Shown: one piece after another, positions 2,757 to 61,734 of the stretch
How positions within the stretch are numbered: position 1 is the first letter of the stretch
Layout: each line of letters begins with the position of its first letter
Source: an uncultured Mycoplasmatota bacterium
Lineage (GTDB): Bacteria; Bacillota_I; Bacilli_A; RF39; UBA660
Direction: 5' to 3'
Assembly: GCA_900547465.1 (NCBI GenBank)
Contig: URHJ01000001.1
Coordinates: 20,341 to 84,340, forward strand
Length of the DNA: 64,000 nt
Program-made: the position numbers and the translations under genes
Notes under the pieces: generated by a model
What the model was told of the DNA's origin: nothing
What the model saw: the letters and a program-made list of their open reading frames with translations, nothing else
Database searches by the model: none

Positions 2757-3062
2757 CTAATTAAACATATCTGACAAATCACTTAAATCAATATCTTTTT
2801 CCTCTATTTTAACAGAATCATCGTTATTGATACTTTGTGAAGCTACAGGCTCAACATTACCAACATAACCACTAGATAAATCAGGTTCATCATCTAAAAT
2901 TTCAATAGTTGGCTTTTTATATTCCAAAATATTAACATCATTAGCATTAAGTGTATTAAATGCCTCAACCAACTCAGGAGGAGTATTTTCATCAACAATC
3001 AATCTCCCATTTGCATCTAAATAACGAGCCATATATTGTTTTTGAATCTCATCAAGTTCCAT
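2757..3062 (-). CDS. Small acidic hypothetical protein, last gene of the type VII secretion module
   Basis: 101 aa, strongly acidic, no TM segment. Follows the WXG100 gene with a 17-bp gap on the same strand. Confidence 0.5.
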   Translation of the reverse strand: MELDEIQKQYMARYLDANGRLIVDENTPPELVEAFNTLNANDVNILEYKKPTIEILDDEPDLSSGYVGNVEPVASQSINNDDSVKIEEKDIDLSDLSDMFN

Positions 3063-3079
3063 AACAAATCCCTCTCTTA

Positions 3080-3385
3080 CTAGTGTCTTTTAGATTTTTT
3101 CTTAGAAACTGCTTTTGAAAATGCAAGTTGATTATCCATATTTACTGCATAATTATAAGCAGCCTTATAATCAGCAATATTATTATTATGATTCCTTATT
3201 GCCTTATCAAACCAAGCTTTAGCATCTTCACCATTCCAATATGCTGATGTACCATCACCCATTACAAAAGATTTTAAAGCTCCATTCAATGCTACAATAT
3301 CACTATGTAAATTTCTTAAACGTGTATTTACATTTTTTAATTCAGCTTCCATTTTATTTATTTTTTTAATTCCTACTGTCTCCAT
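3080..3385 (-). CDS. esxA: WXG100-family (EsxA-like) secreted protein
   Basis: 101 aa, predicted helix-turn-helix. A central W-x-G (SAYWNGEDAKAW) sits near residue 51. Adjacent to EssC and YukD-like genes. Confidence 0.7.
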   Translation of the reverse strand: METVGIKKINKMEAELKNVNTRLRNLHSDIVALNGALKSFVMGDGTSAYWNGEDAKAWFDKAIRNHNNNIADYKAAYNYAVNMDNQLAFSKAVSKKKSKRH

Positions 3386-3397
3386 AATATCCCCTTC

Positions 3398-3841
3398 CTA
3401 GTTACCACTAAAGTTTACAGAACTAGAGTCACTTTTTGCATTGGCATTGTAAAATGCAACAAATTCAGGTTGAGTTTGAAGATACTTAAACATAACTTGT
3501 AAAGCTTCTTCATTCTCATCAACATTAAATGCTTCTTCCAATTCTTTTTTTCTGTTTGAAGTATATTTACCTTGGTTTATACAATTTTCAGATAATTTTT
3601 CCAAATTAGAAATCCATCTTTTCCCAGAAACACATTTTGATATCTCCTTAAAATCTCCACCAAGTCTTTGAAATCTCTTAGTAACATTATCATAATTATC
3701 AGAAATAGTTCTTTTTAGCTTATTAGCCATATCGTTATTAACCATATCTGAATCAACACTAACATATTGATTAGTTAAATTTGGGTCAAGTTTTAAAGCT
3801 TCTATATCTTGAACACCAGGCGCAGTTATTATACTTGCCAT
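3398..3841 (-). CDS. Hypothetical soluble protein in the type VII secretion module (possible substrate or chaperone)
   Basis: 147 aa, no TM, no recognisable motif. Gene context only. Confidence 0.45.
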   Translation of the reverse strand: MASIITAPGVQDIEALKLDPNLTNQYVSVDSDMVNNDMANKLKRTISDNYDNVTKRFQRLGGDFKEISKCVSGKRWISNLEKLSENCINQGKYTSNRKKELEEAFNVDENEEALQVMFKYLQTQPEFVAFYNANAKSDSSSVNFSGN

Positions 3842-4112
3842 ATCATCATTTCTCCCATCACTATTATAATCATCTTAAGTATAGCACACTATTCTATTTT
3901 GTCAATACTTATTCAGACCATTGTCTATAGCCATAGTACAATTGGTGTAAACTTTATTTTATGTAAAATTAACCAAATTTATATCAAAAAATAAAATTAC
4001 AGATTTAATAATTATAAGTTGCCATATTACATACGATAAGCATCAACTTAATATCCAAAAAGTTTTATATTACCACTAATAAAGTAATAACATTACTATA
4101 AAAAAGCCTTCA

Positions 4113-4139
4113 TAGTTCACTTTTTCATTTAGTGAACTA
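4113..4139 (-). terminator. Possible intrinsic terminator after the YukD-like gene
   Basis: Inverted repeat TAGTTCACT (4113-4121) / AGTGAACTA (4131-4139) with a 9-nt loop. On the minus transcript it is followed by ..AAGGCTTTTTT. Confidence 0.3.
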
Positions 4140-4197
4140 CAAAGGTATTATATCTGTTTCAGATTTTTTATACTTATTTTTAACTGGTATATAAAAA

Positions 4198-4497
4198 TTA
4201 CAATAACATCAATTTCATGCCATTAGTTATACCAGAAAATTTAACTAAATTATTAACATTAATTAAATATCCATCATATCTATATAAGTTTTCACTACCG
4301 CTTGTACTATAATCATCACCAACAAGATCTTTTACAGTCTTAATAATAATCTTTATTGCATCACTAACTTTAATACCTATTGGAATATTTAAATCATATT
4401 CTTCATCTAATCTAACAACATATATTGAAACTAACAATTTATTCATACACATCACCTTCCTACGATAAATCAAAAAGGTATTTTTTACAAAACACAA
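4198..4497 (-). CDS. esaB: YukD/EsaB-like ubiquitin-fold protein of type VII secretion
   Basis: About 80-99 aa. The true start is probably an internal M (MNKLL..). A beta-grasp-like pattern (IYVVRLDEEYDLNIPIGIKVSDAI...YRYDGYLIN...GMKLML) lies immediately downstream of essC. Confidence 0.6.
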   Translation of the reverse strand: MCFVKNTFLIYRRKVMCMNKLLVSIYVVRLDEEYDLNIPIGIKVSDAIKIIIKTVKDLVGDDYSTSGSENLYRYDGYLINVNNLVKFSGITNGMKLMLL

Positions 4498-4512
4498 TTA
4501 ATATTGAGATTT

Positions 4513-7500
4513 CTAAGATATAGTTGGTGTTTTCAACAATTCTGCTTCAGAATCCTTTATAACAACTGCATTATCAGCTGCCACATCTCCAGAGTTTCTA
4601 AAATATGATGTTTCAAAAAATTCTTGAGAATCAAAATTTTGTCCAATCCATATACCATTTTGATTATCAATTATATTAGATAAACTACCATCAAGTAAGT
4701 TAGGAATATCTCTAAATGAATCATAAATAATATATTTAAACGAATTATTTTTAGTTTCTAAAATCAAATCATCAATTAGTTTAACTTCGTTATTATTACT
4801 CTTTTGTTCATTTAAATACCTAGATAAATTTGAATATCCAATAATCACTATAGTAAACAATTTTTCATTTGCATTCTGATTAAATTTCTGAACATTATTT
4901 AATAAAATTGGTACTATTTTTGTAAAGCTGGAATCATAATATTTTATATTTTCAGTGTGTGATATAGAAATTTCAGAAGCATTTAAAACAATAACATTAT
5001 TATTTTGACATTTAGCAAGAATGTCTATAAAATGATTAAAAAATTTACTAACTTGTTTCTCTTCACTACCGGACATCAAATTAACTATATTAGAAAAATT
5101 ATAATATCCAATCTGTGCAGTAGTTGTATTAATTCCAATTGGTACATTATCTAATGTAGTAATATCTTTTTCAATATATTTAATGCTCAATCTTCTAGGA
5201 ACAGTCGGAATTTCAGGAGCTTTTACTTTCATCACTTCATTCAACTTACCAATAACAAAATCAAGATTTTTCTTTTCATCACTTTCCGAAAATATTAAAG
5301 CCGTTTGGAATTCCATACATTGTTCATTAACCAAAACTAAACCTCGTCCTGGATTCTTTGATGGAATCTTTTTTGTTGAAAAGATATAACTATATTCTGA
5401 AGAATCATTCATATTCAATGCTATATTTTGTGGGAAATTATTACTAACAGATACAGTTAATGCACCTGTTTCAACAGATGATACAATAAAGTTTATTCCA
5501 TATTTGCTACAACTTCTTGTAGTTGATTCAAATAACTCATCATAACAATCAGAAAATTCCTCTCTAAACACTTCCATACCATAAATAAATACTAAAATAT
5601 TAGGAAAATGTCTAGTACCATTCTTCATATCATAACTAAAATCTCCACCATTTTTAGAATAGAATTCTTTTCTTCTATCAATTTCACTTGATACTAACCA
5701 AAATAAATAATTTACTTTTCTTTTATCATTAATTCCAATAACTTCTCCCACCTGAGGTGCACCAGAAAATTTTCTAAGTTTTTCCGCACCCAAGTCGATA
5801 ACATAAACATTTACTTCATTTACATTATAATTAATTATTGTTGAATAAAGCATAGTTGACATCAACGTACACTTTCCCATACCAGAAGAACCTACAATAA
5901 AAGTATTTCCCACATCAGATAAAGACATAGTAACAAAACCCTGCTTTTGATTTTCTGGATCATCATACTCACCAATAATTGCCTCTATTACAGATTTACT
6001 TGGTGTAAATTTATATTTCTGAACAATATCACTATAATAAATAAGATTAGGAACATTATCTAACCACAATTGATTATACTTATAATTATTTTCGTTTGCT
6101 ATTTTAACAATATAGTTCAAAATATTATTTAATTCTTCACCATATTTTACCTTAGTATTATCAACATCATTTTTTTGAACTGCAGATTTATAAACACTAC
6201 CCATATTATTTATAAAAGATATAGAATTATCAAGTTTAGACATAGCCTTTGATGTAGGAACATATTGTACACCTGAATAACCAGATTGTCCTAACACAAA
6301 GTACTGATCATAACCTACTAATAAATAAAATCTACCAGATTCCTTAATTGATGCAGCATCAGGTCTCATAATCATTTCATTACTATCTTCCGCAGTCTGA
6401 ACTTTACAACACACTTTAAATTTTGAGTTAGACCAAATTTGATCATTAACAACTCCACTAGGTTTTTGTGTTGCCAGAATTAAATGTATACCTAAAGAAC
6501 GACCTATACGAGCCGCACTAACAAGTTCGTCCATAAAATCAGGTTGTTGCTCCTTTAATTCAGCAAACTCATCACAAATAATAAATAAATGAGACATTGG
6601 ATCTTTTAAAGTTCCTTCTCTAACTAACTGTTGATATTTATATATATCAATACTACCAGTATTTAATTCTTCTTTTGCTTCGTTAAACTTTCTTTGTCTA
6701 CGTTGTAATTCACTTTTTATTGAAACCAGAGTTCTATTCATTTCGGATTTATCTAAGTTAGTAATTGTTCCCACTAAATGAGGTAACTTTATACCAGTTT
6801 TACGATTTTCAAATGCTCCAGCAAGTCCACCACCTTTATAATCAATTAAAACAAATTGAACTTCATCAGGATTATAATTAACAGCAAGAGACAAAATATA
6901 TGTAATTATAAATTCAGACTTACCACTACCTGTCATTCCAGCTACTAAACCATGGGGACCATGAAATTTTTCATGTAAATCTAAATATAATGTATTACCA
7001 TTTGGATCTACACCAACCGGAGCAGCCAATGAATTAATAATATCAGAAGTATTCCAACGATTAACTATATTCAATTGATCCAAATTACCAACATTATACA
7101 TTTCCAAGAATCCAAGTTTATCAGGTAAAGTTCCACTTGAATTGGAACTGATCTTTATAGGAATATTTGATAATGTATAAATACAACGATCATAATCAAT
7201 AGTTGAATCTAAAAGCTGAGGAATAAATTTTAACGTTCCGTCTTCTTCCATTTCTGATTCAAAATATGAAGCTTCATTATTTGTGTAAGAAATAAATTTT
7301 TTACATCCCATAGGAATTTCTATCATTTTATCACTAAACATAATTAAACTAAAATTAGCATTATGATTACCCAACATAACCTTTTCGATGATGGACAAAT
7401 TTTTATACTTATCTATAGCATCAGAAACAATCAAAAAATAAGATGTCATAACATTATTACTGATTTTTTCTTTATTAGAATCGTATATTTTACATAATTC

Positions 7501-9060
7501 ACTTGATAAATTTTCAGCCTCTCTAGAATTAGAAGCAAAGAATCTCAAACTTCTATCATTACTCCAACAATGATTCAAATTTTTAATTTTATTTAACCCA
7601 GAAAATTCATCTGTTAAAATAACAAGCTTCAAATCTGAATAGTCGTGTAATGTAATAAGTTGAAGCAAGATTGATCCCAAAAACATATCATAATCACCAT
7701 TATTGTTTATAAATGCGATTGAATTATTTTTTAAGTTAATCGTAAAGGGAGCATCATCAATATATTTATATTTATCAATTAAGGCATCTATTTTATCTAA
7801 TAATTTATCATTATCTATTATCAACTCAGGTCTTTCATATTTAAAATCAACATTAGATTTTATTTTACCAACCCCAAGTTTAACATTTAAAAAAAAGTTT
7901 GAACTAGAATTTCTTGAAAACAAATATGCAGTCTTTTTTAAGATAGCATCTTGACATTCATTTAATGATAAATTATTAAATTCTAACACCGTTCTTTGCT
8001 CTGTAACATACTCAATCAATTTCTTCTCTTTTCTTTTTAAATAACGCTTATATGTTACTACTCTAACCTTTTCGGTTATAAATGATCTTATTTTGTTTAC
8101 AAAAGATTCAACCACAGGCCAGATAATACCAGTAAATAACATCACAACACACATCACAAGTGAAGTCACTAAAGATTCTTTATCAGACCTTCCTGATTTA
8201 TAACCTTGTATTGAATAATAAGTTGATACCACAGAGGTAATACTCATCAATACCGTAGGAACCATTTGAAAAATAAGCCCTTCTGTTTCTTTTTTTTCTT
8301 TAGTACCTGGTGCTACAAAATTAAAACTATAAGTTTTTTCTTTTTTTCTAAATACAGTTGATTTAGAAAAATAATCCTTTTTTTCATAGAAATCTTTTAC
8401 ATTTTCATTTGAACTAATATTATTTATAGCATATTGACACTTATTTTCTGAAACAACTTTAGAATTATAGCAATTAATAGTAGTTTTACCAGGAAAAAAT
8501 ATTAACTTATTTGCTAGAATCACTATCCTAACTCCCATAACAAAAATATTATCAAAACTATATAAAAAACAATTGTTATTTCTTTTTTTATTAACATAAA
8601 TTGGAACATCAGTATTTAAGTTGTTGAGTTGCCATACATTTGAATTATAAGTAAGTTCCAATTGTTGCTGTGAAATATTTGGACTAGTCAAAATTAAATC
8701 ACATTTATTATCACTTCCTAATATTAACTTAGTTTCTTCCTGAACAGTATAAAAACAATAGTTAGGATCATCACCTGGAACTACGTACAACAATATATTT
8801 TCCTTATTTAAATAATTTAAATTATAAAACATATATTCATCAACAAAAGTTGACTGAACCGCATCAGAGCCAACAAAAACCGATACCTCTTCATTAGAAT
8901 TAATAATCCACTTTCCATCTTTTTCCTGAATATTTGTTAAATTTCTAACATGACCTTCATCATCAATATCTGTTAATACATAATTACCAGAAACTTCTTT
9001 AGGAAGCCTAAATGTATAAATTTTATCGCTATGTAATATATATATTAACATATCAGTCAC
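4513..9060 (-). CDS. essC: Type VII secretion FtsK/SpoIIIE-family ATPase EssC/YukB
   Basis: 1515 aa. N-terminal FHA-like region, a TM segment near residues 290-330, then repeated P-loop ATPase domains (Walker A motifs GMTGSGKSE and GSSGMGKCT). Flanked by YukD-like and WXG100 genes. Confidence 0.85.
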   Translation of the reverse strand: MTDMLIYILHSDKIYTFRLPKEVSGNYVLTDIDDEGHVRNLTNIQEKDGKWIINSNEEVSVFVGSDAVQSTFVDEYMFYNLNYLNKENILLYVVPGDDPNYCFYTVQEETKLILGSDNKCDLILTSPNISQQQLELTYNSNVWQLNNLNTDVPIYVNKKRNNNCFLYSFDNIFVMGVRIVILANKLIFFPGKTTINCYNSKVVSENKCQYAINNISSNENVKDFYEKKDYFSKSTVFRKKEKTYSFNFVAPGTKEKKETEGLIFQMVPTVLMSITSVVSTYYSIQGYKSGRSDKESLVTSLVMCVVMLFTGIIWPVVESFVNKIRSFITEKVRVVTYKRYLKRKEKKLIEYVTEQRTVLEFNNLSLNECQDAILKKTAYLFSRNSSSNFFLNVKLGVGKIKSNVDFKYERPELIIDNDKLLDKIDALIDKYKYIDDAPFTINLKNNSIAFINNNGDYDMFLGSILLQLITLHDYSDLKLVILTDEFSGLNKIKNLNHCWSNDRSLRFFASNSREAENLSSELCKIYDSNKEKISNNVMTSYFLIVSDAIDKYKNLSIIEKVMLGNHNANFSLIMFSDKMIEIPMGCKKFISYTNNEASYFESEMEEDGTLKFIPQLLDSTIDYDRCIYTLSNIPIKISSNSSGTLPDKLGFLEMYNVGNLDQLNIVNRWNTSDIINSLAAPVGVDPNGNTLYLDLHEKFHGPHGLVAGMTGSGKSEFIITYILSLAVNYNPDEVQFVLIDYKGGGLAGAFENRKTGIKLPHLVGTITNLDKSEMNRTLVSIKSELQRRQRKFNEAKEELNTGSIDIYKYQQLVREGTLKDPMSHLFIICDEFAELKEQQPDFMDELVSAARIGRSLGIHLILATQKPSGVVNDQIWSNSKFKVCCKVQTAEDSNEMIMRPDAASIKESGRFYLLVGYDQYFVLGQSGYSGVQYVPTSKAMSKLDNSISFINNMGSVYKSAVQKNDVDNTKVKYGEELNNILNYIVKIANENNYKYNQLWLDNVPNLIYYSDIVQKYKFTPSKSVIEAIIGEYDDPENQKQGFVTMSLSDVGNTFIVGSSGMGKCTLMSTMLYSTIINYNVNEVNVYVIDLGAEKLRKFSGAPQVGEVIGINDKRKVNYLFWLVSSEIDRRKEFYSKNGGDFSYDMKNGTRHFPNILVFIYGMEVFREEFSDCYDELFESTTRSCSKYGINFIVSSVETGALTVSVSNNFPQNIALNMNDSSEYSYIFSTKKIPSKNPGRGLVLVNEQCMEFQTALIFSESDEKKNLDFVIGKLNEVMKVKAPEIPTVPRRLSIKYIEKDITTLDNVPIGINTTTAQIGYYNFSNIVNLMSGSEEKQVSKFFNHFIDILAKCQNNNVIVLNASEISISHTENIKYYDSSFTKIVPILLNNVQKFNQNANEKLFTIVIIGYSNLSRYLNEQKSNNNEVKLIDDLILETKNNSFKYIIYDSFRDIPNLLDGSLSNIIDNQNGIWIGQNFDSQEFFETSYFRNSGDVAADNAVVIKDSEAELLKTPTIS

Positions 9061-12278: not shown

Positions 12279-12593
12279 TTATTTAAATAATGCTTGAAAA
12301 AAAGCAAATAAAGCATCTATTCCATAGAAAAATAAGGAACAGAAAACTATAAATATAATAGTTGCAATAGAATACTTTACCATATCAGTTTTTGATGTCC
12401 AATGAACTTTAGTAAATTCAGTTTTAACACCATGACAAAAAATTCTAAATTTAACCCACAAATTATTTTTTTCTTCTTTATTTGTATTTTTCTTAGTAGT
12501 CTTTTTCTTTTTTTGCACTACTTCTTCTTCATGCTTATCTTCATCAATTTTTACAATAGATTTTCTTTCTTTTGCCTTTACAATTTCAGCCAT
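12279..12593 (-). CDS. secE: Preprotein translocase subunit SecE (Lys-rich N-terminal extension)
   Basis: 104 aa with a single C-terminal TM helix. Position upstream of nusG. Confidence 0.8.
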   Translation of the reverse strand: MAEIVKAKERKSIVKIDEDKHEEEVVQKKKKTTKKNTNKEEKNNLWVKFRIFCHGVKTEFTKVHWTSKTDMVKYSIATIIFIVFCSLFFYGIDALFAFFQALFK

Positions 12594-12688
12594 TTTTCTT
12601 CACCTTGCTTCTTAATTTTTCCAAATAAAAAACACTCTTTCGTGTTCACAATTAAAATAACATAAACACAATAGAATGTCAATAAAAA

Positions 12689-13345
12689 TTAACCAATAAA
12701 TAAAGCAATTGATAAAACTACTCCTAAAACTATCATCGCAATTGGTAAAATCAAAAAACTAACAAAAGCAGCTTGTCTCTTATCATCTAAATCTCTATAA
12801 AGATTTCTAGTATCTTTATCCGCAAAAGCACTACCTATACTTGTAGCCTTCTTTTTTTGAATTCCCATAGAAGTAGAAGAACCTTCACCTACTTCTTTTT
12901 GTAATGCTTCTACTTCTCTTCTCGTTTTTTCAGCAACAAAGTCACAATAATAAACAGAGGCCCCCCTTTCTACAATCCCTCTAAAATAAGGAACATCATC
13001 TTGAGGCAAAAATTCAGCAAACATATCAAAATTTTCTTTTAAAAATTTAGGCTTTAAATAATCAAATGTACCGCTATAAATACCAATTTGAATAAAGGCA
13101 ATATTATATATATCTTCTCTAATTAACTGGCTTTCTTGATCAAGTGGCATCTTAATAACTGTTTTATAACGAATAGGACTTTCTTTTTCAGTATCAAGAA
13201 TTTCGATATCATTAAGGTTGAAACTTTTTATACAATAATCATGTTCATGAATATACTTCATAGCTGTTGACATATTATAATATAATTTCTGCATATCTTC
13301 CGTACTATGTTGATATTGATAGTACTCTTTCAAATCCATTTTCAT
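12689..13345 (-). CDS. Hypothetical tail-anchored membrane protein (cytoplasmic N-domain, single C-terminal TM)
   Basis: 218 aa, with the only hydrophobic helix at the extreme C-terminus (AAFVSFLILPIAMIVLGVVLSIALFIG). It occupies the slot between sigH and secE where Bacillus has rpmG. Confidence 0.5.
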   Translation of the reverse strand: MKMDLKEYYQYQHSTEDMQKLYYNMSTAMKYIHEHDYCIKSFNLNDIEILDTEKESPIRYKTVIKMPLDQESQLIREDIYNIAFIQIGIYSGTFDYLKPKFLKENFDMFAEFLPQDDVPYFRGIVERGASVYYCDFVAEKTRREVEALQKEVGEGSSTSMGIQKKKATSIGSAFADKDTRNLYRDLDDKRQAAFVSFLILPIAMIVLGVVLSIALFIG

Positions 13346-13399
13346 ACCCTATTCACCTATGATAATTGTAACATAAAACTATAAAAAAAACAGATAAAT

Positions 13400-14008
13400 T
13401 TATATTTTTTCAAACTCTAATTTATATCTGTCTTTACATATTTGTATATAACGATCAACTGAACTAACTGATAAATCAAGTAATTTAGCTATTTCTTTAT
13501 ACTTAAAACCATTATAACGTAATTCAAATATTAAACTCTGAACAAGAGGTAATTTATGCTTAAACTTAATTAACTTAGTAAATATGTAATCAGAACTAAC
13601 ATAAAAATCTGGACTTCCACTACAATCTTCATCTTCAGGATCAAAAGTAATATCATCATCAATAATAATATTATCAAAAGAATAAGCATTATTTAAAATT
13701 TCATTTTTAGTAGAAAGAAATTGCCTACAATATCCCCTTATTTGTCTATTTATACAAATACTACTAAATGTATAAAACAATGCACTTTGATTATCTTTAT
13801 ATGATTTAATTGCGTTAGAAAGACCAACATAACCTTCTTGAACTAAATCATCTTTATCAATACCTCTAAATTTAAAATAATTATAATACTTATCAGCTAT
13901 TGCATAAATGATAGGTTTATATTTTCTAAATATAACTTTCTCTGCCTCATCATCATTTTCTGCAACCAAATACAATTGTTCATAATCGTTAATATCTCTA
14001 TAATCCAT
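13400..14008 (-). CDS. sigH: Sigma-70 family sigma factor, SigH-like
   Basis: 202 aa. Region 2 motif DLVQEGYVGLSNAIKSY and region 4 HTH (YKEIAKLLDLSVSSVDRYI). Synteny cysS-mrnC-rlmB-sigH as in Bacillus and Clostridium. Confidence 0.7.
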   Translation of the reverse strand: MDYRDINDYEQLYLVAENDDEAEKVIFRKYKPIIYAIADKYYNYFKFRGIDKDDLVQEGYVGLSNAIKSYKDNQSALFYTFSSICINRQIRGYCRQFLSTKNEILNNAYSFDNIIIDDDITFDPEDEDCSGSPDFYVSSDYIFTKLIKFKHKLPLVQSLIFELRYNGFKYKEIAKLLDLSVSSVDRYIQICKDRYKLEFEKI

Positions 14009-48930: not shown

Positions 48931-50661
48931 CTAATTAATTTCTACAATATCACCAAAGTCAGCAAAATTTGACTTTGACTCCTGCACCTCTGGAGTATCA
49001 ACTATAGTTTTCGCCTCAACAACAGGTTCTTCTTCTATTTTATATTTATTTCCGCTTTTTGTAAATTCTATATATTTCTTTTTCTCATTTTCCCATTCTT
49101 CATCAGTAATAAATACTATTTTTTTATCAGTTGTAGTAATTTTACTATATACTTCCATAATAGATTCTAAATTATTTAAATTTTGATCAACAACTGACTG
49201 ATATTCATAACTAATAATCATACCATTTTCACTAGAAGCACGTAACGTTCCATTTAGAATCTCTGAAACTATATAACCAATTTTTTGATCAAAAACATAA
49301 TCATTTAAACCATTAATTTTCGCTAAATCAGCATTTTTTTCTACCTTGGAAGCAAGAGCTAATACATTGTGAACCCTAACACTCATCAATTTATGTAAAT
49401 AATCTAAATCAGATTCTACAGCATTAATACCAATAGAAACATTTTTTTCTTCATTAACCGATTCATCAACATTGATTGAATCATCAATACTATTAGGTTC
49501 ATCATTCACTTTATCAACACTATCAGACCCACCATCCACCTCAGCAATAGAATTTTCATTAACACTAGTACTACTATTTCCCAAAGATTCATCATTACTA
49601 ATTATTTCCCGGGAAATAATTTTATTACTATTACCTATTGAATTAATATAATCCAATAATAATATTTCAACATATATATAAGGTTTAGAAGCCTTCTTTA
49701 ATTCGAACATATTTTCGTTTAATTTTACTAAAAGTTTTTCAGTCCTATAGACATCGATATTAGTACCAGACAAATAGTAATCGACAATTTTATCTTTAAG
49801 AAAGATTAGAAATTGATTCATAATTTCCACAATATTTTTACCTGAAGCATAAAATTTATCTAACTTTAATATCATTTGTTTTATATCATTAGATATAATA
49901 ATCTTATAAAAATCTTCCAAATCAGACTTTGAAATCATATCATTTATCTCATAAAAGTCTTCAACAGTTATCTTACCATTTTTATAAGAAGATAACTTAT
50001 CCAATGTACTTAGTGAATCTCTCAGACCACCATCAGAATAAATAGAAATTTGTTTTAATGTTTCATCATCTATTTCTATCTTTTCAAGATCTGATATTTC
50101 ACGTAATCTATTAACATTACAATCATCAGAAATACGTTTAAATGAAAAGCATTGACATCTAGATATAATAGTACTAGAAACTTTCTGAGGATCAGTAGTA
50201 GCAAGTATAAAAATAACATGCTTAGGAGGTTCCTCTAAAGTCTTTAAAAGAGCATTAAAAGCACCAGCTGTCAACATATGAACCTCGTCTATAATATATA
50301 CTTTATACTTAAGACTATTAGGAACCAAATTAACTTTACTCTTTATTTCTCTTATTTCATCAACACCATTATTAGAAGCAGCATCAATTTCAATAATATC
50401 AACACATTCTTTTTCAGCAGAAGCAATACAACTATCACACTTTTCACAGGGATTACCATTAGAGTTATTAGTACAATTAACCGCCCTAGCAAATATTTTA
50501 GCAACAGTAGTTTTTCCAATACCACGTGGACCAAAAAACATATAAGCATGGCTAATTTTATCATTCAAAATAGAGTTTTTTAATGTTTCTATAATATACT
50601 TTTGATCAACCACATCATCAAATGATTTTGGTCTATATTTTCTATATAAAGCTTGATACAT
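48931..50661 (-). CDS. dnaX: DNA polymerase III subunits gamma/tau
   Basis: 576 aa. Walker A GPRGIGKTT, zinc module CEKCDSC. Confidence 0.9.
   Translation of the reverse strand: MYQALYRKYRPKSFDDVVDQKYIIETLKNSILNDKISHAYMFFGPRGIGKTTVAKIFARAVNCTNNSNGNPCEKCDSCIASAEKECVDIIEIDAASNNGVDEIREIKSKVNLVPNSLKYKVYIIDEVHMLTAGAFNALLKTLEEPPKHVIFILATTDPQKVSSTIISRCQCFSFKRISDDCNVNRLREISDLEKIEIDDETLKQISIYSDGGLRDSLSTLDKLSSYKNGKITVEDFYEINDMISKSDLEDFYKIIISNDIKQMILKLDKFYASGKNIVEIMNQFLIFLKDKIVDYYLSGTNIDVYRTEKLLVKLNENMFELKKASKPYIYVEILLLDYINSIGNSNKIISREIISNDESLGNSSTSVNENSIAEVDGGSDSVDKVNDEPNSIDDSINVDESVNEEKNVSIGINAVESDLDYLHKLMSVRVHNVLALASKVEKNADLAKINGLNDYVFDQKIGYIVSEILNGTLRASSENGMIISYEYQSVVDQNLNNLESIMEVYSKITTTDKKIVFITDEEWENEKKKYIEFTKSGNKYKIEEEPVVEAKTIVDTPEVQESKSNFADFGDIVEIN
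49603..49618. promoter_or_regulatory. Noc-binding-site (NBS) palindrome inside dnaX
   Basis: TATTTCCCGGGAAATA, a perfect 16-bp palindrome, extended to the 20-bp palindrome ATTATTTCCCGGGAAATAAT at 49601-49620. Confidence 0.5.
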
Positions 50662-51170: not shown

Positions 51171-51327
51171 AACCTAACATTTTTTTATAAAAAAAGATGC
51201 ACATGAGAGTTGATTGTTAAAGCTGCTATCTTCCGATTCTGACTTGATTCCAATACACTCATTGCATCTATTACATTTTATTACATTTTTAATCATAATT
51301 CAATAAAAACATTCAAAACATTTTATA

Positions 51328-51343
51328 TGTTTCACGTGAAACA
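51328..51343. promoter_or_regulatory. parS site 1 (perfect consensus)
   Basis: TGTTTCACGTGAAACA. The flanking bases extend it to the 18-bp palindrome ATGTTTCACGTGAAACAT. Confidence 0.7.
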
Positions 51344-51413
51344 TCAAATATTATTAAATTTAATAAAAAAAAAGATTAATTTTAGTTAAAAAAAAGCAAA
51401 TTCATTTTTATCT

Positions 51414-51422
51414 TGTGGAAAA
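51414..51422. promoter_or_regulatory. DnaA-box-like 9-mer next to parS site 2
   Basis: TGTGGAAAA, the complement of TTTTCCACA, which is the box variant also found at the dnaA-rpmH origin. It lies 5 bp upstream of parS site 2. Confidence 0.45.
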
Positions 51423-51427
51423 AACAA

Positions 51428-51443
51428 TGTTTCACGTGAAACA
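51428..51443. promoter_or_regulatory. parS site 2 (perfect)
   Basis: TGTTTCACGTGAAACA, exactly 100 bp from site 1. Confidence 0.7.
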
Positions 51444-51803
51444 TTTAAATAATTTTTTAAATCAATATCACTTTATAATCCGTAAAAATAACAAATAAAT
51501 TAATAAATAATAACCAATCACTATAATTCAAGAAAATAAAGTGTTTATTTTATAATAAATACAAATAATAAAATAAATAGTTAAATCTCATAATATAAAA
51601 CACATCAGATTGTTAATAAACAACTTCTGTTTATAAATTTAACAATTATTTTTCACATTTTAATGTAAAAATAGATAAATACAATTTAAAATATAAAATA
51701 AATGAACTACCATATTTTCAATTATTGCAAATAATAATAATTCAAAAAAAGTAGTAAATAAAGATTAAAAATTCTATAAAGGATTATTTTTACTCAACAA
51801 AAA

Positions 51804-51819
51804 AGTTTCACGTGAAACA
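51804..51819. promoter_or_regulatory. parS site 3 (15/16)
   Basis: AGTTTCACGTGAAACA. Confidence 0.6.
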
Positions 51820-51882
51820 TAATACATTTATATTATATACTCACCATCATATCATAAATAAATACAATATATTTTTTAACCT

Positions 51883-51891
51883 TGTGGATAT
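51883..51891. promoter_or_regulatory. DnaA-box-like 9-mer next to parS site 4
   Basis: TGTGGATAT, 8/9 to the complement of TTATCCACA. It lies 5 bp upstream of parS site 4. Confidence 0.45.
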
Positions 51892-51896
51892 TTTAA

Positions 51897-51912
51897 TGTT
51901 TCACGTGAAACA
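51897..51912. promoter_or_regulatory. parS site 4 (perfect)
   Basis: TGTTTCACGTGAAACA. Confidence 0.7.
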
Positions 51913-52101
51913 TTAAAACACCTATATTATAATCGTACTTCTTTTTCAATATAGTAAAAACAAATAAATTTATTAACATTTTCTGTGTAAAATTCCATTA
52001 CTTAAATAACTTCACTGTTACACTATTGTATATATCAATATAACAAGTGAATTATTTTTATTTTAACAAAATTACTTAAAAATAATCATTGTTACAAATA
52101 A

Positions 52102-52117
52102 AGTTTCACGTGAAACA
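52102..52117. promoter_or_regulatory. parS site 5 (15/16)
   Basis: AGTTTCACGTGAAACA. Confidence 0.6.
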
Positions 52118-52157
52118 TACAGGTAAAACTATTTTAATGATGTATATTTTTTTAGAT

Positions 52158-52166
52158 TGTGGAAAA
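52158..52166. promoter_or_regulatory. DnaA-box-like 9-mer next to parS site 6
   Basis: TGTGGAAAA, 3 bp upstream of parS site 6. Confidence 0.45.
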
Positions 52167-52169
52167 CAA

Positions 52170-52185
52170 TGTTTCACGTGAAACA
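52170..52185. promoter_or_regulatory. parS site 6 (perfect)
   Basis: TGTTTCACGTGAAACA. Confidence 0.7.
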
Positions 52186-52273
52186 TAAAAACTTTATCTC
52201 AGATTATAACATAATACATTACTTAAGTTTTTCTATCCTTTTCTAAATTTTCTTACAAAATAACTATAAAGAT

Positions 52274-52289
52274 TATTTCCCGGGAAATA
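52274..52289. promoter_or_regulatory. Noc-binding-site (NBS) palindrome
   Basis: TATTTCCCGGGAAATA (perfect), within the 22-bp palindrome GATTATTTCCCGGGAAATAATC at 52271-52292. Confidence 0.55.
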
Positions 52290-52368
52290 ATCTGCCTATT
52301 TTTTTTATTTGTATAAATAAAATTTCCACAAGAAATATTTCCCAAACAATACTATATTTACTCTTAAT

Positions 52369-52384
52369 TATTTCCCAGGAAATA
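52369..52384. promoter_or_regulatory. NBS-like palindrome (15/16)
   Basis: TATTTCCCAGGAAATA, about 25 bp past the gyrA stop codon. Confidence 0.4.
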
Positions 52385-52409
52385 ATTGCAAAAAAAAAGA
52401 AGCTTTTAA

Positions 52410-58062: not shown

Positions 58063-58503
58063 TTATGCATTTCTATTTCTCATTATTAAATCTAATCTAG
58101 AAGCTCTTAAAATTTGATTATCCATAGTTCTTTTAGAAACAGGAATATTAATAGAAACACCATTATTAAATATAACATCAGTTGTATTAAAATCCCCTTC
58201 TTTAATACTCTTTATTGATTTTAAAGAAAGCCATGAACAATCATCAGATATTGGTGAATTTGTTGGAAAAAATATCAAATTTCTACTATTATCCACAATA
58301 ATTGGAACTTTATAATTAATATGTAATATCTCTTTAGTTCCTTCCTTTCTTCCTTCATAAGAAGATCCAAAATACCTACAACTATGATCCACTACATCAA
58401 ATGGTAAAGAATCAACAACATATTTTTTGTCATCTTCTAGTATTAAAGATTTCTTATTTTTGGCTAAAATAGCTAATGTCCCCTCATTAATTTCATAATT
58501 CAT
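58063..58503 (-). CDS. comK: ComK-family transcription factor homolog (short form)
   Basis: 146 aa with long colinear matches to B. subtilis ComK: VDHSCRYFGSSYEGRKEGT vs VDRSCRFFGSSYAGRKAGT, KVPIIVDNSRNLIFFPTNS vs KPPIMVDPSNQIFLFPTLS, and TDVIFNNGVSINIPVS..DNQILRASRL vs TEVTFSNGKTMELPIS..ENQVYRTAWL. It lacks the last ~45 aa of B. subtilis ComK. Confidence 0.7.
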   Translation of the reverse strand: MNYEINEGTLAILAKNKKSLILEDDKKYVVDSLPFDVVDHSCRYFGSSYEGRKEGTKEILHINYKVPIIVDNSRNLIFFPTNSPISDDCSWLSLKSIKSIKEGDFNTTDVIFNNGVSINIPVSKRTMDNQILRASRLDLIMRNRNA

Positions 58504-61293: not shown

Positions 61294-61390
61294 ACAACCA
61301 TCTCCCCATCAAGATAAATAAATCACAACTAGTGTAACCCAATTTGTTGAAAAAATAAATAGTAAAAATTGTTTTTTTATTTTCAACAGG

Positions 61391-61462
61391 CTTTCCACAA
61401 AGTTATCAACAAATAAATGTGAATAAAATAAAGGTATTTTTATATTTTCCACATTTTCCACA
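61391..61462. promoter_or_regulatory. oriC DnaA-box cluster between dnaA and rpmH, at the strand-switch point
   Basis: CTTTCCACA (61391-61399), TTATCAACA (61403-61411), and two abutting perfect TTTTCCACA boxes (61445-61453, 61454-61462). Also an inverted repeat GGACAA-a-TTGTCC at 61531-61543. All genes to the left are minus-strand and all to the right are plus-strand. Confidence 0.6.
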
Positions 61463-61551
61463 AATTTTATTAAACATGTGTCTAATTTGTTTTCAACAAA
61501 CCTGTTAAAAGTGTGAAAAAAAGAAAAACAGGACAAATTGTCCATATTTAA

Positions 61552-61581
61552 TTGACAAAAATAGGTATTTATTATTATAAT
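61552..61581 (+). promoter_or_regulatory. Putative sigma-A promoter of rpmH
   Basis: TTGACA (61552-61557), an 18-nt spacer, TATAAT (61576-61581), then RBS GGAGGTGG and ATG at 61612. Confidence 0.45.
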
Positions 61582-61611
61582 AATGTAGATTTATGTCTGG
61601 AGGTGGAATAG

Positions 61612-61734
61612 ATGAAAAGAACATATCAACCAAATAATCGTAAAAAAGCAAAAAAACACGGATTTTTTGCACGTAAATTTTCAAAAATCTTAAATAGTCG
61701 TCGTCGTAAAGGACGTAAAAGTCTTTGTAAATAA
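61612..61734 (+). CDS. rpmH: 50S ribosomal protein L34
   Basis: 40 aa: [40 protein letters not shown]. Below the 60-aa cutoff of the ORF track. Followed by rnpA. Confidence 0.85.

Follow-up and report, generated by a model that had tools for sequence, protein, structure and literature searches.

In Bacillus subtilis, the parS sites of the partition protein ParB (Spo0J) are mostly located inside genes, one of them in spo0J itself. Ten sites are known in this bacterium, eight of them in the origin-proximal region (PMC3245932; PMC7022226). Nucleation of ParB, sliding of its clamps, action of ParA and loading of SMC are established in B. subtilis, Caulobacter and other bacteria (PMC7333895; PMC7022226). 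Clustered sites have been described in Pseudomonas (parS1-4), and 20-23 origin-proximal sites are present in Streptomyces and Listeria (PMC7333895; PMC4368675). As summarised in a review, the Caulobacter centromere binds ParB and, via domain IV, DnaA, which was proposed to trigger segregation there (Mera 2014, via PMC6399470). Two questions still posed in reviews of the field are why bacteria keep several clustered parS sites although a single one is enough, and what links replication initiation to segregation (PMC7333895; PMC6399470). Here, we consider these questions in a stretch of 64,000 nucleotides (hereafter the window; contig URHJ01000001.1, positions 20,341 to 84,340) from an uncultured Mycoplasmatota bacterium, in which the gap between gyrA and tadA holds a dense array of parS sites together with putative binding sites for DnaA and for a Noc-like protein.

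A motif search of the window with TGTTTCACGTGAAACA, allowing up to two mismatches, returned exactly six matches, all between 51328 and 52185, where 0.02 are expected by chance; none of 100 shuffled sequences reached six. The sites are 16 bp inverted repeats that match the Firmicutes parS consensus TGTTNCACGTGAAACA. Four are perfect: parS 1 (51328-51343, invariant in nine strains), parS 2 (51428-51443), parS 4 (51897-51912, the core of a perfect palindrome that extends over 28 bp, 51891-51918) and parS 6 (52170-52185). The other two, parS 3 (51804-51819) and parS 5 (52102-52117), read AGTTTCACGTGAAACA and match at 15 of 16 positions, with A for T at position 1. Packed into 0.86 kb of non-coding DNA, the six sites form three pairs with internal spacings of 100, 93 and 68 bp; their number, quality, starts and spacings are all as the initial annotation of this DNA had claimed. 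The surrounding gap (1,239 bp, 51171-52409) had been called the only long non-coding stretch. It is the sole stretch of more than 1 kb free of open reading frames (ORFs) in the window, but it holds an RNA gene, described below. The scan for parS and related palindromes covered about 82 kb around oriC, in a genome of about 1.5 Mb. Allowing up to three mismatches, no further parS was found in the window, in the 10 kb past its right end or in the approximately 8.5 kb past its left end. A count with mismatches allowed had been proposed to show whether other clusters exist, and the array in the gyrA gap is the only one in the region covered. From these sequence features, together with the cognate proteins and the conservation described below, we estimate with a probability of about 0.78 that the gap between gyrA and the RNA gene ffs is the chromosome's main centromere, that is, a six-parS array for loading ParB with co-located sites for DnaA and a Noc-like protein.

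Such an array could, in principle, also have arisen by neutral repeat expansion, the palindromic 16-mers having spread by tandem duplication or template switching or belonging to a dispersed repeat family. Comparison with other genomes bears on this alternative. A scan based on GyrA, with one genome per GTDB species, covered 17 relatives (69-84% GyrA identity) and 63 distant genomes that served as controls (Clostridia, mostly Lachnospiraceae). The relatives are metagenome-assembled genomes (MAGs) of 22-31% GC; their taxonomy is taken from their labels, which name uncultured Bacilli, Tenericutes or Erysipelotrichaceae. The data for one of them come from a complete 1.52 Mb chromosome (OZ007022.1). 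One relative (L017, MAG UMGS900) was left out as independent evidence, which leaves 16 independent species. At the end of that contig, positions 12340-12725 match the gyrA 3′ end and the gap of the window with about 99% identity, apart from 51 bp that are deleted, but identity is only about 74% over the remainder of the locus. A chimeric end of the assembly is the probable cause, recent transfer being the alternative.

All 16 independent species carry 2-9 parS sites at the gyrA-tadA/dnaX locus, as shown by the comparison with related genomes that had been suggested initially. By comparison, 62 of the 63 controls have no parS there, and in the remaining one (L067) a single site with two mismatches follows gyrA at a distance of about 3 kb. 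The relatives share the gene order gyrB-gyrA-[array]-tadA-dnaX-ybaB-recR, part or all of the array lying between tadA and dnaX in a few species. Against the closest species (L019), the gap is unalignable except for parS, the adjoining DnaA box and ffs. Within the host species, a divergent strain shows 46 single-nucleotide polymorphisms (SNPs) in 991 bp of spacer, and the 96 bp of its parS sites are free of them (P ~0.01). This strain has also lost a segment of 92 bp that includes one of the Noc-binding sites (NBS) described below. Neutral expansion would agree with the 2-9 range of copy number and with the finding that tandem repeats of recent origin make up the arrays of several relatives (an 82 bp unit in 8.1 copies in L021; sites about 107 bp apart in L018 and about 41 bp apart in L023). 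It is nevertheless very unlikely: the consensus of ParB is reproduced exactly by the motif and the genome encodes a ParB that matches it, the position is kept in 16 of 16 species with spacers that defy alignment, the approximately 82 kb contain no further copy, and parS stayed free of SNPs in a strain whose spacers diverge by 4.6%. The picture that these sequences suggest is of an array that turns over rapidly, with selection for keeping multiple parS at the locus. In the window itself, TRF detected no real tandem array. Alignment of the three modules is restricted to parS-N3-5-TTWTCCACAAG-TAAAAA and the second parS, which fits old, diverged duplicates under constraint at these motifs.

About 30% of the parS sites in the window and in the arrays L013-L029 are at the centre of perfect palindromes of 26-56 bp, the arms of which differ from site to site. 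The mean palindromic extension at parS is 3.3 bp, compared with 1.9 bp in permutations (p < 2e-4). These extensions may be a by-product of template switching, a mutational process that neutral expansion would also involve, or may result from selection for hairpins or cruciforms.

The genes for the partition proteins are outside the window, just past its right end, and were found in same-species contigs 99.4-100% identical to it. Past jag, these contigs carry mnmE, a gene of the glutamine amidotransferase type, mnmG, rsmG, a noc-like gene, parA and parB; the last four are 8.5-10 kb from oriC, on the side opposite to the array. The Spo0J-type ParB (299 amino acids, L011:17635-18534) has R173 and G201 (GKSR...MGHAR), which makes it parS-type by the rules of Jalal et al. 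(PMC7383237), and ParA/Soj (261 amino acids) is encoded directly upstream of it. The presence of this cognate pair answers the question, raised with the initial annotation, of whether the genome encodes a ParB at all. The likeness to plasmid centromeres that had also been suggested did not hold, as parAB is about 18-20 kb from the array, on the other side of oriC, instead of beside it. Neither parS nor NBS was detected, at up to three mismatches, within the par genes, in their vicinity or over the 8.5 kb past the left end of the window.

The gap contains a second type of palindrome. The 16 bp motif TATTTCCCGGGAAATA, which we take to be the NBS consensus, is present as a perfect copy at 52274-52289 (the copy deleted in the divergent strain, L007) and as a 15/16 variant, TATTTCCCAGGAAATA, at 52369-52384. 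Both lie between gyrA and the parS array. A third, perfect copy is inside dnaX (49603-49618), so that two of the three NBS of the region scanned are in the gap. NBS and parS differ at two positions (PMC7383237). Among the relatives, an NBS with at most one mismatch occurs in the gyrA-dnaX non-coding region of 6 of the 16 species, as against 0.5 expected from its density elsewhere, and the dnaX copy recurs about 1.05-1.15 kb from the start of the gene in L019, L025 and L027. A candidate reader of these sites is the ParB paralogue encoded next to parA (470 amino acids, L011:15361-16773). It carries Q173, K179, S184 and R201 (GKSQSAVANKLRLLS...SERHAR), which are of the NBS type: according to the published rule, Q173 and R201 are accompanied by a lysine at 179 and/or 184, and a single permissive lysine suffices (PMC7383237). 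Since ParB has parS-type residues and the paralogue NBS-type residues, each type of palindrome in the gap has a matching reader encoded in the genome. With the NCBIfam Noc model, the paralogue scores 293 bits and ParB 232, whereas both score about 201 bits with parB_part. The predicted protein starts at MQTNEEVVYLYLDDIIPNRFQPR, directly at the conserved N-terminal box and with a Shine-Dalgarno-like GAGG just upstream, and it carries an acidic low-complexity linker of about 230 amino acids.

Three 9-mers resembling DnaA boxes adjoin the second parS of each pair, as the initial annotation had pointed out. All are on the minus strand: TTTTCCACA at 51414-51422 (plus-strand reading TGTGGAAAA), 5 bp from parS 2; ATATCCACA at 51883-51891 (plus-strand reading TGTGGATAT), 5 bp from parS 4; and TTTTCCACA again at 52158-52166 (TGTGGAAAA on the plus strand), 3 bp from parS 6. 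These are the same words as the boxes of this genome in the dnaA-rpmH spacer, as had been claimed, and in the dnaA-dnaN spacer, the first being identical to the oriC boxes at 61445-61462. A weaker fourth box, ATTTCCACA (52322-52330, plus strand), is in the opposite orientation between the two NBS, within inverted repeat I8, and has TCCACAAG in common with the other three. Two further TTTTCCACA boxes had been noted in the gyrA 3′ end (52420 and 52468). They are present, but they belong to a duplicated coding stretch (repeat D11), and the gyrA 3′ end of the nearest relative has no copy of TTTTCCACA; for these two reasons they are treated as coincidental, a probable by-product of the duplication, and were set aside as parts of the array.

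The pairing of boxes with parS recurs in related species. When identical tandem copies were collapsed and the unbiased species set was used, 14 of the 77 unique parS sites had a DnaA box no more than 16 bp away, where 0.94 are expected (p = 6e-13). The gaps between box and parS fall into two tight classes. In the first (3-6 bp; the window and L021, with a TAATCCACA variant in L019), the T-rich end of the box faces parS, while in the second (6-8 bp; L013, L014 and L016) it is the CACA end. Both flanks of dnaA in the relatives are rich in T(T/A)TCCACA, and an extended box, GTTTTCCACAGT, is found both at oriC and beside parS in L013, L014 and L016. Additional members of the lineage were taken from metagenomes, where, among the matches listed, a box is beside 4 of 4, 4-5 of 5 and 4 of 7 parS sites, and a perfect TTATCCACA is next to parS; these loci were chosen for at least one composite. 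Chance matches are expected among the very many parS of that collection, so that the scan yields no frequency and served only to add lineage members. Because the pairing recurs far above chance, the physical association of ParB and DnaA sites that was initially proposed is real at the sequence level.

It may be asked, however, whether the adjacent 9-mers are DnaA boxes at all, as they could be degenerate half-parS or decayed relics of parS, to which ParB would bind weakly if anything binds at all, in which case the locus would be a plain multi-parS centromere. TTTTCCAC agrees with the half-parS TGTTCCAC at 7 of 8 positions, binding of ParB to half-parS (GTTCCAC, GTTTCAC) is described in Pseudomonas and others (PMC7022226), and arrays evolve through duplication and decay. 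Yet the one mismatch falls on the G that is read by R173 of ParB (PMC7383237), the 9- to 12-mers are identical to oriC boxes of their own genomes, flanking bases included, the perfect TTATCCACA that adjoins parS in other lineage members is further from half-parS, and the spacing is tight, in two discrete classes. Half-parS sites or relics of parS are therefore an unlikely source of these 9-mers, and the reading as DnaA boxes within a centromere is preferred.

The initial annotation went further and saw in the gap a second origin-like element about 9 kb from oriC, where DnaA would unwind the 360 bp spacer between the first two pairs and initiate or license replication, with ParB loading coupled to it. 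The presence in the array of boxes identical to those of oriC speaks for such an element, as does the 360 bp spacer itself (51444-51803, with no ORF and no Rfam match), the GC content of which (14%) is among the lowest values of the window. In addition, repeat arrays with origin and centromere character that bind DnaA and ParB are reported for secondary replicons of Deinococcus (PMC7671480). The cumulative GC skew, however, falls steadily from 49 to 61 kb, and its lowest point, at about 61.4 kb, is within the dnaA-rpmH spacer (61294-61612), which holds two tandem TTTTCCACA boxes and two boxes with one mismatch. At the array (51-52 kb), the skew stays negative and the cumulative curve has no inflection; the array is 9.2-10.1 kb from the minimum and hence origin-proximal. 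Furthermore, its three boxes are single, and with 275 and 469 bp between them they are too far from one another for the tight clustering that typifies origins and could support DnaA oligomerisation. The spacer is extremely AT-rich as stated, but its role as an unwinding element lacks support, as all spacers of the array are similarly low in GC (12-21%). Among the relatives, 10 of 16 arrays are without any box, while the loci that bear dnaA all have flanking DnaA boxes, except L020 and the dnaA-dnaN gap of L028. A second origin is thus extremely improbable, and that the array does not fire as an origin is the best explanation of these data.

A different proposal would be that the sites are mainly transcriptional operators, through which ParB, Noc or DnaA would act on ffs or tadA, or hairpins that terminate gyrA transcripts. 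Here, the remaining content of the gap has to be taken into account. It contains the gene for the signal recognition particle (SRP) RNA, ffs (51186-51278, minus strand; Rfam RF00169, 52.8 bits), which lies outside the array and is the sole match of an Rfam scan of the gap at E <= 1. The SRP RNA gene, like the NBS palindromes and the noc-like, parA and parB genes across oriC, had been overlooked in the initial annotation. The location of parS 1 about 50 bp upstream of ffs would suit an operator, DnaA doubles as a transcription factor in Bacillus, and the long perfect palindromes around about 30% of the parS sites in the relatives could form hairpins. Nevertheless, no terminator-like site was detected, promoter-like sites are at the level of shuffled sequences (21 versus 17.2), the array follows tadA instead of preceding ffs in some relatives, and six sites exceed what an operator needs. 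We consider a mainly transcriptional function highly improbable.

If the gap is the main centromere, the following scheme can be proposed. The six parS sites, at a distance of about 9-10 kb from oriC, would serve as nucleation points for ParB, which would then close into clamps bound to cytidine triphosphate (CTP) and slide outwards, by analogy with characterised ParB proteins. The sliding clamps would build a partition complex on which ParA (Soj) would act and from which SMC would be loaded near the origin. Several sites within less than 1 kb would raise the rate of ParB loading and buffer the loss or mutation of single sites. Each single, strong DnaA box would probably dock one DnaA beside parS; at a centre-to-centre distance of about 15-20 bp, estimated from geometry, DnaA and ParB could bind together, and a sliding clamp would meet the bound DnaA on its way. 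Occupancy by the initiator and loading at the centromere could thereby influence each other, through steric gating, through a roadblock to sliding or through the proximity of DnaA to ParA monomers stimulated by ParB. Several outcomes can be envisaged: DnaA may gate or bias the loading of ParB, the ParB/ParA hub may modulate DnaA, as Soj does in B. subtilis (PMC3245932), or DnaA may license segregation, as proposed for Caulobacter (PMC6399470). The NBS, finally, would recruit the Noc-like paralogue to the array.

In some relatives, the three types of sites are joined in one repeat. The tandem array of L021 (82 bp unit, 13088-13753) has the composition NBS-N4-AGTGGAAAA-N6-parS, and L203 (1-400) shows tandem units of about 76 bp with an NBS, the DnaA-box-like AGTGGAAAA and parS. 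It is tempting to propose, though only tentatively, that the centromere of this lineage is a tripartite docking module, with a DnaA box, parS and often an NBS within about 50 bp (in 76-82 bp tandem units in some species), where the initiator, ParB and a Noc-like CTPase without a membrane helix would interact on the same DNA. If this were true, occupancy by DnaA could gate or direct the loading of ParB, or ParB and ParA could control the availability of DnaA, and the module would be a hard-wired cis-element joining initiation, segregation and division control, of a kind undescribed in Firmicutes.

Several observations weigh against the assignment of the gap as the main centromere, or against parts of it. 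The region scanned is a small fraction of the genome, and more parS sites may exist elsewhere. The organism is uncultured, and we infer from sequence the binding of ParB, DnaA and the Noc-like protein at the array, the loading of clamps and the interplay of the three. ParB and the Noc-like protein both have GERRxK instead of the usual GERRxR in the CTP-binding box. The score of the Noc-like protein with the Noc model is under the NCBIfam cut-off of 315 bits. By comparison with B. subtilis Noc, this protein is judged to be without the N-terminal membrane-targeting segment (amphipathic helix). Because this segment is missing and an acidic linker is present, the role of the Noc-like protein may differ from classical nucleoid occlusion. 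Adjacent boxes are absent from the arrays of the ten species mentioned above, so that the DnaA box often accompanies the array without being required for it. The box is found in two opposite orientations according to clade, on either side of parS relative to oriC. Since the orientation varies in this way, a single directional-roadblock model is disfavoured, and this idea was dropped. Finally, the within-species SNP test on the 27 bp of boxes gave P = 0.28, a test that had no power.

As to the wider context, the plus strand of the origin region carries rpmH-rnpA-yidC-jag, and the minus strand dnaA, dnaN, comK, recF, gyrB and gyrA, followed past gyrA by the 1,239 bp gap and then by tadA, dnaX, ybaB and recR. 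The ComK-family gene between dnaN and recF (58063-58503, minus strand) encodes a protein found as an exact match in 148 blocks of the assembly collection. According to exact-protein look-ups, assemblies of human-gut metagenomes commonly contain the host species, in contigs that share 99.1-100% identity with the window; TadA translated from its GTG start gave no match in such a look-up. Further away, a protein of 1,515 amino acids (2757-9060, minus strand) has two FtsK/SpoIIIE domains and weak FHA matches; it is adjoined by several ORFs of about 100 amino acids, in a layout that resembles a type VII secretion (EssC-like) locus. A T-box leader (39044-39248, minus strand; Rfam RF00230, 103.6 bits) is located upstream of an ORF of 513 amino acids at 37463-39004.

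The initial annotation regarded the array as unusual. It is indeed a packed intergenic array, but 20-23 origin-proximal parS are known in Firmicutes and larger non-coding arrays are found in metagenomic contigs, such that dense parS arrays as such are not unique. The contigs in question (L202, L183, L146, L117 and L094) derive from an unrelated organism of about 50% GC and carry 11-30 parS each; in L202 (12.2 kb), 30 parS form two non-coding arrays of about 3.5 kb that flank a gene for an OYE-type reductase and an SBF transporter gene. In the open-access literature, we found no intergenic parS array conserved in position after gyrA in a Firmicutes-type lineage, no defined box-N3-8-parS module recurring across species, and neither NBS interleaved with parS nor tandem triple modules. 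This lineage provides a compact natural test case for the questions of clustered parS and of the coupling between initiation and segregation. At about 50-80 bp, its modules are of a size that would allow direct in vitro assays of cooperation, competition or mutual blocking between DnaA, ParB-CTP clamps and Noc. On the practical side, the array can serve as a marker of the origin region in MAGs of a poorly known gut group.

Among the described systems, Spo0J/parS of B. subtilis, as well as ParB/parS of S. pneumoniae, shares with the host the 16 bp consensus TGTTNCACGTGAAACA and an origin-proximal location. The order rsmG-noc-soj-spo0J next to oriC in B. subtilis is also that of the par genes of the host, and similar roles can be expected here, namely ParB clamp loading, SMC recruitment and Soj control of DnaA (PMC7022226; PMC3245932). 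Unlike in B. subtilis, the six parS of the host are gathered in 0.86 kb of non-coding DNA, none is in or near parB, and DnaA boxes and NBS are interleaved with them at the base-pair scale. The clusters of Pseudomonas, Streptomyces and Listeria resemble the host array in having several origin-proximal parS where one would suffice. These clusters spread over several kb or more and are largely located within and between many genes. The host array differs from them in being a single intergenic array, conserved after gyrA and accompanied by DnaA sites and NBS.

The parS region of C. crescentus offers a parallel for the boxes, with a centromere a few kb from the origin that contains DnaA boxes. In contrast to that organism, which belongs to a different phylum, the present lineage has a defined module in which box and parS are 3-8 bp apart, where none is reported in Caulobacter, as well as NBS and a Noc paralogue, which are not involved there; binding of DnaA is predicted here. 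With the Noc/NBS system of B. subtilis, the host has in common the 16 bp NBS palindrome and a paralogue at the noc position with Q173, K179 and R201. There, NBS are scattered around the chromosome (PMC4331003), whereas in the host they concentrate beside or between parS, and the protein has a long acidic linker and no N-terminal membrane segment. Finally, the DnaA-box clusters (DBCs) of B. subtilis and datA of E. coli are, like the boxes of the host, outside yet near oriC and modulate initiation, a role that would be putative in the host; in B. subtilis, deletion of DBCs is synergistic with that of spo0J (PMC3245932). DBCs are clusters of boxes unpaired with parS, while the host has solitary boxes, each of them linked to a parS site.

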